NCBI GenBank assembly: GCA_965216735.1
Contig: OZ244198.1
Coordinates: 629,628-693,627, forward strand
DNA length: 64,000 nt
Reading direction: 5' to 3'
Origin: Arenicellales bacterium
GTDB lineage: Bacteria > Pseudomonadota > Gammaproteobacteria > Arenicellales > CBDCFT01
Made by a program: the position numbers and the translations under genes. Position 1 is the stretch's first letter; each line of letters starts with the position of its first letter. The notes under the pieces are model-generated. The model searched no databases. It was not told the origin of the DNA and worked only from the letters and a program-made list of their open reading frames with translations. Shown in pieces: positions 59,886 through 60,878 of this stretch.

Positions 59886-60878
59886 ATGAAGGCAATGCGA
59901 ACAACTAACATCATTAAAGAACCAACTAAGTTTTCAATGTCGAACGAAGAGCTAGCGTTGTTTAACAAACAAGGTTTTGCTGGCCCTTTTTCACTATACA
60001 CCCAAGGGGAAATAGAAGATGAGGTAAGAAAACTTAGACCAAAATTGATCGATACCCGAGACGCTGCCTTTCATGGAAATGATGGTGTGTCCGGTGCAAC
60101 TAATCTTGCTAATTATGATCGCCACCTTGATCTACCGTTTCTTGCAGATCATATTTGTCGGCCAGAGATCGTTGGTAGGGTAGCCAGTATTCTTGGGCCA
60201 GATATACTTTGTTGGAGAACTGAATTTTTTCCAAAGTATCCAGGCGATGAAGGTACCGATTGGCACCAGGCCGCGAACTTTAGCAATGTCGCTACATCAA
60301 AAAAGCCACAAATTGAATGGCCCCGAGGAAGTGGATTCCAAGGAACTATTACAGTTTGGACAGCCTTTACAGACAGTACGGTTGAGAATGGTTGCATGCA
60401 GTTAATGCCTGGGACACATAAAGTAATGAACTACGATGAAACTAAGGTCATGGACTACGACGAATCTAGAATTAATTGTGTTAAGAAGAACGGTATAAAA
60501 CGCGGTTTCTTTGGTTACGACTACAGGCAATTACAGAAAGATCCAAATTGGAGTCCAGACGAGGCGAAAGCAAAGTCAATGATTATGCGCGCGGGCGAGT
60601 TCATCATTTTTTGGTCAACGCTACTTCACGCGTCGCATCCCCACAGCGCTAAAACAAACTCCATTCGACTGGGGTACGCGGCGCGCTACTTACCAACTTG
60701 TGTAAAGGTTTATCCGCATTCCAATTCTCTAGATGAATTCGGTGGTACTGCTTCCCTAAATAAACACGGATGCGTGCTCGTTTGTGGAAACAACTATTTC
60801 AGTCACAACCAATTTCTATCCCATACCCTTAGCGGGATGAAATTTAAAACTCAATCCTTTGGAGATGCGCATCTGTGA
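59886..60878 (+). CDS. Non-haem Fe(II)/2-oxoglutarate-dependent halogenase, SyrB2/CmaB type (PhyH fold with HxA motif)
   Basis: [19 protein letters not shown] has H127-Q-A129 in place of HxD/E. It also has the distal His in [12 protein letters not shown] and an Arg in RLGYAARY. The start may be the internal ATG at 59937 ([18 protein letters not shown]). Confidence 0.8.
   Translation: [330 protein letters not shown]

Follow-up and report, generated by a model that had tools for sequence, protein, structure and literature searches.

Hydroxylases that depend on Fe(II) and 2-oxoglutarate (2OG) hold their iron through a facial triad of two His residues and an Asp or Glu, while the halogenases carry Ala or Gly instead of the carboxylate, so that a halide coordinates the iron (PMC8407142). 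The corresponding residues of the halogenase SyrB2 are numbered His116, Ala118 and His235 (PMC2767507). KtzD, from the kutzneride pathway, cryptically chlorinates thioesterified L-Ile, which sets up the cyclopropane of allocoronamic acid (PMC12615548, PMC8407142), and a flavoprotein then closes the ring. Kutznerides also contain 2-(1-methylcyclopropyl)-D-glycine, and the type II thioesterase (TEII) KtzF has been proposed to release it (PMC4147253). The subject of this analysis is a gene on the plus strand (59886-60878) of a 64-kb stretch of an Arenicellales genome (contig OZ244198.1), hereafter called the window, together with the small operon that it heads. Its 330-aa product is assigned, from matches to Pfam PhyH, a phmmer search of the PDB, the model TIGR01762 and a Foldseek comparison, as an Fe(II)/2OG-dependent aliphatic halogenase of the SyrB2/CytC3/KtzD family. 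With high confidence, the explanation favoured as a whole is that of a carrier-protein-dependent Fe(II)/2OG halogenase acting within a KtzD-like cassette.

The feature that drew attention to this gene is a tripeptide. At 60264-60272 the window reads CACCAGGCC (CAC CAG GCC), which on translation gives His127-Gln128-Ala129, codons 127-129 of the plus-strand open reading frame (ORF). An earlier note, made from the letters alone, had claimed that these codons encode H-Q-A, and translation bears this out; the peptides that it quoted are likewise all found, the 19-residue one at 114-132, HASHPH at 248-253 and RLGYAARY at 261-268. The numbering depends on the choice between two in-frame ATG candidates, at 59886 (330 aa) and at 59895 (327 aa). 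The identical public protein (P0001) has 327 aa and therefore starts at the second ATG, in which case all residue numbers drop by 3 and the motif residues become His124 and Ala126. No convincing Shine–Dalgarno sequence is found at either ATG, and the N-terminus of the halogenase is not conserved. The H-x-A tripeptide is not significant on its own, since it occurs twice in the protein, at 127 and at 253; it is the alignment that gives it meaning.

The top two PDB matches obtained with phmmer are SyrB2 (E = 3.5e-124) and CytC3 (E = 6.9e-109), with BLASTP identities of 57% and 51%, respectively, and the third is ThoJ (6zyk), a non-haem monooxygenase according to the title of its PDB entry, at E = 2e-10 and about 20% identity. 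The alignment to SyrB2 is ungapped at the motif, which is part of a run of 29 identical residues. In PDB numbering, His127 and Ala129 correspond to residues 119 and 121 of the SyrB2 chain and His248 to residue 238, and the constant chain offset of 3 at both His residues leads to the published His116, Ala118 and His235. The motif of the window protein thus corresponds to SyrB2 His116-Gln-Ala118, with His127 as a predicted iron ligand and Ala129 in the place of the facial-triad carboxylate; no Asp or Glu aligns there, in agreement with the earlier note, and the HxD/E...H triad of PhyH hydroxylases is absent. Of the three His residues in HASHPH, it is the first, His248 (60627-60629, plus strand), that aligns with SyrB2 His235 and represents the second iron ligand, which the same note had placed in this segment. 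ThoJ reads H-Q-D at the aligned site. This is the contrast to be expected from the rule, invoked in the note and given in PMC8407142, that HxD/E marks hydroxylases and HxA/G halogenases.

Conservation was counted over 120 database homologues plus the window protein. T124, D125, W126, H127, Q128, A129, F132, W158, S244, H248, S250, R261 and R267 are invariant in all 121 sequences. The aligned SyrB2 counterparts include T113, H116, A118, F121, W145, S231, H235, R248 and R254, which serve the chloride pocket and 2OG binding in SyrB2; the counterpart of T143 is likewise conserved. A 2OG-binding Arg had been proposed within RLGYAARY. Arg261 and Arg267 of the segment RLGYAAR (60666-60686, plus strand) are indeed present and invariant and align with SyrB2 Arg248 and Arg254; the pair presumably serves 2OG binding and the second sphere, as in SyrB2.

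At the level of families, the only Pfam assignment of the halogenase is PhyH (PF05721, 116 bits). With the NCBIfam model TIGR01762, "chlorinating enzyme", the protein reaches 403.2 bits (cut-off 226.3) in a match that spans profile positions 1-287 of 288, and many public homologues already bear that name. Judged by its sequence, the protein belongs to PF05721, but not as a member of the hydroxylase type. The earlier observation of the HQA motif is confirmed, and its interpretation, that the motif marks a genuine halogenase of the SyrB2/KtzD family, is supported at the sequence level. For annotation, this means a non-haem Fe(II)/2OG halogenase ("chlorinating enzyme") rather than a phytanoyl-CoA dioxygenase, as the curated models already say.

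Predicted structure leads to the same relatives. An AlphaFold2 model built from 33 sequences has a mean pLDDT (predicted local distance difference test) of 72 and a pTM (predicted template modelling score) of 0.78. In a Foldseek comparison of this model with the PDB, SyrB2 ranks first (E = 4e-38, TM 0.77/0.82-0.84) and CytC3 second (E = 3e-25). Hydroxylases lie far behind the halogenases (E = 1e-14 or worse), the best being ThoJ (E = 2e-14), followed by the 2OG-dependent oxygenases SnoK, SnoN, GriE and PhyH. The ungapped sequence alignment at 57% identity is nevertheless stronger evidence than the model.

It had been argued that this single residue is what turns the annotation from phytanoyl-CoA dioxygenase into halogenase. 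That claim is overstated, as TIGR01762 already separates the family (403 bits versus 226). Exchange of SyrB2 Ala118 for Asp or Glu abolishes halogenation and no hydroxylase is gained, and the converse changes, Asp to Ala or Gly in prolyl 4-hydroxylase (P4H) and Asp to Ala in TauD, cost hydroxylation and do not confer halogenation (PMC2767507). SadA D157G is a partial exception to this lack of interconversion (PMC8407142), and substrate positioning has been described as the overriding determinant of halogenation versus hydroxylation (PMC4019311). By analogy with these enzymes, the Ala that replaces the carboxylate is regarded as necessary but not sufficient for halogenation. Since the Asp and Glu variants of SyrB2 Ala118 are dead, A129D and A129E variants of the window protein would be expected to lose activity, with no hydroxylation.

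The halogenase is the first gene of an operon that continues with a carrier protein, a thioesterase, an adenylation (A) enzyme and an acyl-CoA dehydrogenase (ACAD)-like gene, all on the plus strand, with junctions of -4, 9, 14 and 2 nt. The stand-alone carrier (thiolation, T) protein (60875-61156, 93 aa; Pfam PP-binding, 49 bits) has its start in a 4-nt overlap with the halogenase stop codon, and its phosphopantetheine site is Ser46 in GGNS (codon TCG, 61010-61012). It is followed by a type II thioesterase (TE) of 256 aa (61166-61936; Pfam Thioesterase, 134 bits), whose nucleophile is Ser98 in GHSLG (61457-61459), and by a stand-alone amino-acid adenylation enzyme of 563 aa (61951-63642; AMP-binding and AMP-binding_C, TIGR01733 at 380 bits) with the Ile/Val-type code DAFFLGVTFK. 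The last ORF (63645-64000) runs off the end of the window, which holds its first 118 aa; these N-terminal residues give weak NCBIfam ACAD matches and belong to an acyl-CoA-dehydrogenase-like flavoprotein, a KtzA-like candidate. That the substrate is carrier-bound and supplied by a partner A enzyme, as is characteristic of the family, is indicated on genomic evidence by the PP-binding protein and the A enzyme of the same operon. Upstream of the halogenase and divergent from it, on the minus strand, lies a 308-aa transporter of the EamA family (drug/metabolite transporter, DMT; 58750-59676; Pfam EamA, 110 bits), a candidate product exporter; among the NCBIfam models it comes closest to the O-acetylserine/cysteine exporter, with a score short of the cut-off. 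No nonribosomal peptide synthetase (NRPS) module is found in the 64-kb window; the thioesterase and the exporter accompany the cassette instead. Promoter-like and terminator-like sites are not commoner than in shuffled sequence, and the window holds no tRNA genes and no Rfam matches. A role of the ACAD-like protein as a prolyl-S-carrier-protein dehydrogenase of the RedW/PigA kind was considered and rejected, for the A code is not of the Pro type and the model scores are far below the cut-offs.

A scan of species-representative genomes, among which the source genome is not included, yielded 80 loci with halogenases 59-72% identical to that of the window, the closest being those of Arenibaculum and Algihabitans (Alphaproteobacteria) and of Pseudoalteromonas luteoviolacea. 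When searched with the window proteins by tblastn, most of the 80 loci show the order Hal-T-TE-A-ACAD (Hal, halogenase) or, as a variant, Hal-A-T-TE-ACAD. Among the hosts are Streptomyces, Nocardia, Amycolatopsis, Pseudomonas, Pseudoalteromonas, Haliangium and Archangium. The KtzDCBA-like cassette with its added TE, and with an identical substrate code, is spread across Actinomycetota, Myxococcota and several classes of proteobacteria. Fifty-nine loci have exactly the code DAFFLGVTFK, from which that of KtzB, DAFFLGMTFK, differs at one position. Codes were extracted with a GrsA reference, which reproduces DAWTIAAICK with D235 and K517, so that the numbering is self-consistent. Among PDB entries, the A enzyme comes closest to LgrA, in which the first A domain activates Val. 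Of the 69 loci with an Ile-type code, 65 carry an ACAD-like gene, as against none of the three with the code DIWLTGLCIK. These three loci (L073, L077 and L079, from Streptomyces and Amycolatopsis) have the order Hal-A-T-TE, and their cassette may represent a CytC-type pathway that retains chlorine. In a neighbour-joining (NJ) tree computed without support values, the window protein groups with those of L001 and L002 inside the clade that contains KtzD, with SyrB2 and CytC3 as outgroups.

The N-terminus of the ACAD-like protein is 46% identical to Kutzneria KtzA over 112 aa and up to 54% identical to other ACADs of the cassette. These cassette ACADs, KtzA included, are most similar to the isovaleryl-CoA dehydrogenase (IVD)/long-chain acyl-CoA dehydrogenase (LCAD) type, and IVD and LCAD place the catalytic base, a Glu, on helix G. 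The cassette ACADs have no Glu at the canonical "YEGT" position, and a loss of the catalytic base was considered on these grounds; this idea was dropped because alignment to solved ACADs shows them to be IVD/LCAD-like, with the helix-G Glu conserved in an L(D/Q)xER motif. A base for abstraction of the alpha proton is therefore available, which fits an intramolecular displacement of chloride.

The relatives add a further component. In P. luteoviolacea, a 157-aa aminoacyl-tRNA editing protein (PF04073; L004:13576-14049), related to YbaK but below the family cut-offs, is encoded between the A and ACAD genes. Of the 80 loci, 29 contain a YbaK-like homologue, mostly at the same position, and none is found within the 64-kb window. 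Stand-alone tRNA deacylases are known to mark pathways for non-canonical amino acids, with AlaX-type enzymes beside the coronamic-acid and chlorothreonine pathways (PMC13149037), a source that does not mention YbaK-type deacylases. A literature search returned no described halogenase cassette with a YbaK-type deacylase, the AlaX-type cases being the nearest precedent. The YbaK-like protein is probably a self-protection deacylase directed at the amino-acid product of the cassette, and its presence in relatives supports a free, potentially toxic amino acid as that product. In P. luteoviolacea, an EamA transporter gene also lies near the cassette, just upstream together with an AraC regulator, and an A-T-reductase NRPS-like enzyme (AMP-binding, PP-binding, NAD_binding_4) is encoded at L004:2244-5684; these upstream genes hint that the amino-acid product may undergo further processing there.

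The proposed model starts with the A enzyme, which would charge Ser46 of the carrier protein with L-Ile or possibly with a close aliphatic analogue, for example Val or allo-Ile. The halogenase would then chlorinate the side chain of the Ile-S-carrier protein. In its active site, His127 and His248 would ligate the iron, with Ala129 where hydroxylases have Asp or Glu, and chloride would bind at the coordination site thus vacated. Decarboxylation of 2OG would produce a Cl-Fe(IV)=O species able to take a hydrogen from an unactivated side-chain carbon, and the resulting radical would rebound onto the chlorine. We infer this chloride/Fe(IV)=O mechanism for the window enzyme by analogy with its characterised relatives. 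The ACAD-like flavoprotein could subsequently use its base to displace the chloride and form a cyclopropane ring. The resulting residue, of the allocoronamic-acid type or a related one derived from Ile, would be freed by the type II thioesterase and exported by the divergent EamA transporter. Homology supports the loading and chlorination steps well; ring closure, thioesterase release and export are suggested by the gene content. That the chlorine is cryptic, as in the kutzneride KtzD/KtzA pair, is the outcome towards which we lean, with modest confidence.

Several points weigh against this model. The code of the A domain does not separate Ile from allo-Ile or Val with certainty. Identity to KtzD, at 62%, is barely above that to SyrB2, at 57%, and the tree that joins the window protein to KtzD lacks support values. 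The ACAD-like gene is seen for 118 aa only, and its catalytic region falls beyond the window end. The structural comparison suggested in the earlier note reproduced the fold and gave SyrB2 and CytC3 as nearest neighbours, but not the ligand geometry, for which the model provides no independent support, as the motif loop (126-138) has a pLDDT below 50. No biochemistry was found for the window protein or for any version of the cassette that contains a TE. Finally, a YbaK-like deacylase in 29 of the 80 loci is easier to reconcile with an amino acid that bears an alpha hydrogen and could be loaded onto tRNA, for example methylcyclopropylglycine or a chloro-amino acid, than with the alpha,alpha-disubstituted coronamic acid.

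In the likeliest rival, the chlorine is retained and the pathway, like CytC1-4 or that of 4-chlorothreonine, releases a free chlorinated aliphatic amino acid as an antimetabolite, for instance 4-chloro-isoleucine or 4-chloro-valine, and the ACAD-like protein has another role, for example in desaturation. Together, the A, T, Hal and TE genes make up precisely the CytC set, CytC3 ranks second among the structural relatives, and the TE together with the exporter suggests that the product is a free amino acid. The YbaK-like deacylase of 29 loci implies, in addition, that a product or intermediate is open to tRNA charging, as would suit a chloro-amino acid, and tRNA deacylases mark non-canonical amino-acid pathways that include that of chlorothreonine (PMC13149037). 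This outcome is nonetheless judged unlikely: the ACAD-like gene is tied to the Ile-type code (65 of 69 loci) and absent from the three Hal-A-T-TE loci with another code, the only characterised member of the cassette, KtzDCBA, loses its chlorine, and the window A domain is only distantly related to CytC1.

Two further alternatives concern the enzyme itself. The match to PhyH as the sole Pfam family, and the fact that SyrB2 hydroxylates some non-native substrates, such as norvaline, with an outcome that depends on positioning (PMC4019311), would be compatible with a protein that, despite its HxA motif, natively hydroxylates, desaturates or otherwise oxidises its substrate and is functionally a PhyH-type oxygenase. 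Against this stand an identity of 57-62% to three biochemically proven halogenases, the invariance of every tested position of the chloride pocket and second sphere, the wide margin by which the TIGR01762 cut-off is passed and the clustering with KtzD, all of which make such an activity highly improbable. As GCC and GAC are one base apart, the Ala codon could also be a sequencing or assembly error for Asp, or the gene a decaying remnant. Because every homologue has Ala, an Asp here would be the anomaly, and an error of this kind is very unlikely on the sequence evidence; the ORF is moreover intact, full length and translationally coupled to an intact operon, and error and decay taken together are hardly credible.

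The favoured halogenase assignment places the gene within an enzyme family that is already known; what is new is an uncharacterised member, with closest relatives 72% identical, within a cassette of the KtzDCBA kind to which a TE and an exporter are added. The interest lies in this conserved, mobile and apparently unstudied cassette more than in the motif. Tentatively, and with considerable doubt, the Hal-T-TE-A-ACAD unit may be a widespread, mobile, stand-alone pathway to a free Ile-derived and probably cyclopropyl antimetabolite, with 2-(1-methylcyclopropyl)glycine or allocoronamic acid as product candidates, often accompanied by an exporter and by a YbaK-like deacylase whose trans-editing of mischarged tRNA would provide self-protection. 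In that case, the window would hold the first example known from this gammaproteobacterial lineage.

Base composition bears on the origin of the locus. The GC content drops from about 0.50 to 0.39-0.46 (about 0.43) from ~58.3 kb to the window end (58300-64000), and the GC content at third codon positions (GC3) is 0.39-0.43 for the six genes of this island, compared with 0.52-0.57 for MetH, sarcosine oxidase and tyrosinase; the EamA gene, at 0.385, resembles the cassette genes. The low-GC island thus spans the EamA gene and the entire halogenase operon, with its right-hand boundary beyond the window. The low GC and GC3 of the six genes indicate that the region was horizontally acquired. As for the host, its MetH reaches 87% identity to the best database match and about 76% to the next, and the named relatives are metagenome-assembled genomes of unclassified Gammaproteobacteria, Acidiferrobacterales or Arenicellales. 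The halogenase gene signals that an undescribed marine-type gammaproteobacterium has taken up a small cluster devoted to a non-proteinogenic amino acid.

Other features of the window were recorded as well. REP-like (repetitive extragenic palindromic) repeat clusters, with the palindromic core GTAGGAGCGAGCTTGCTCGCGAA and a second 36-nt repeat, TTGTCATTGCGAACGCAGTGAAGCAATCTCG, lie at 55230-55523 and 58011-58269; they are intergenic and flank both sides of a block that carries a tyrosinase gene pair. The tyrosinase gene (PF00264; 56207-57169, minus strand) is preceded by a 145-aa ORF (57184-57621, minus strand) with no Pfam match and a C-terminal tail very rich in Lys and Arg (KKAKKKPAKKRVKKRKAAKKRRSKKASRK), which may be a copper chaperone or caddie-like partner. 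Towards the other end of the window, a SABATH-type carboxyl methyltransferase dependent on S-adenosylmethionine (SAM; Pfam Methyltransf_7; 6119-7225, plus strand), of a family known mainly from plants, lies directly upstream of a methyltransferase fused to an ArsR-type helix-turn-helix (HTH) domain (7222-8214), methylenetetrahydrofolate reductase (MTHFR; 8214-9194) and MetH (9535-13242), and the genes from 6119 to 13242 look like an operon linked to the methyl cycle. No Pfam family is matched at E <= 1e-5 by a 572-aa ORF (15107-16825, plus strand) that lies downstream of a gene for an M19 membrane dipeptidase, and an insertion sequence (IS)-type transposase (DUF772 and DDE_Tnp_1; 18207-19532, plus strand) lies amid otherwise catabolic genes.

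Among known systems, the halogenase can be compared first with the PhyH-type hydroxylases, ThoJ (6ZYK) among them. It has in common with these the Pfam family, the double-stranded beta-helix fold and the 2OG/Fe chemistry, but they keep the HxD/E carboxylate and the similarity is remote. SyrB2 of syringomycin biosynthesis (PDB 2FCT) is the best match of solved structure, with an identical HQA...H ligand set. Its substrate is Thr carried by the A-T didomain protein SyrB1, and the lipopeptide retains the chlorine, whereas the window encodes separate A and T proteins, an Ile/Val-type code and an ACAD-like gene thereafter. CytC3 (PDB 3GJA), the second-best structural match, belongs to a system whose product is gamma,gamma-dichloroaminobutyrate/armentomycin. 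CytC1-4 are encoded by stand-alone A, T, halogenase and TE genes that lead to a free amino-acid antimetabolite, and all four genes are present in the window. The CytC system, however, has no ACAD-like gene and keeps its chlorines, while the window has this fifth gene directly after the others, and CytC1 is distant from the window A enzyme (E = 4e-56, rank 47 in the search in which LgrA is best). CmaB, from coronatine biosynthesis, performs a cryptic gamma-chlorination of carrier-bound (allo-)isoleucine that is followed by cyclopropane closure, like the scheme proposed here; the likeness is one of described chemistry. The closure of the coronamic-acid ring uses CmaC, not an ACAD-like flavoprotein, and the architecture of the cma cluster differs.

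The closest of the known systems is found in Kutzneria sp. 744, where locus L075 has the order Hal-T-A-ACAD, that is, ktzD, ktzC, ktzB and ktzA, which the window shares apart from the thioesterase. This locus is identified as the ktz cluster by a neighbouring divergent NRPS whose A domain has the code DAYSWGGVFK, where DAYLWGGVFK is the published code of KtzE (PMC12049478). KtzD is 62% identical to the window halogenase, and the KtzB code shares 9 of its 10 positions with that of the window A enzyme. The differences lie around this core: in the window, a type II thioesterase gene separates the T and A genes and an EamA exporter is encoded divergently, whereas in ktz the NRPS KtzE is adjacent and the TEII KtzF is encoded elsewhere in the cluster, and no NRPS is seen near the window operon. 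The identity of the free product made by the TE-extended cassette could throw light on the origin of methylcyclopropylglycine in kutznerides. The ktz host is an actinomycete and the window host a gammaproteobacterium, and while the ktz genes furnish a building block for a peptide, those of the window presumably lead to a free amino acid.

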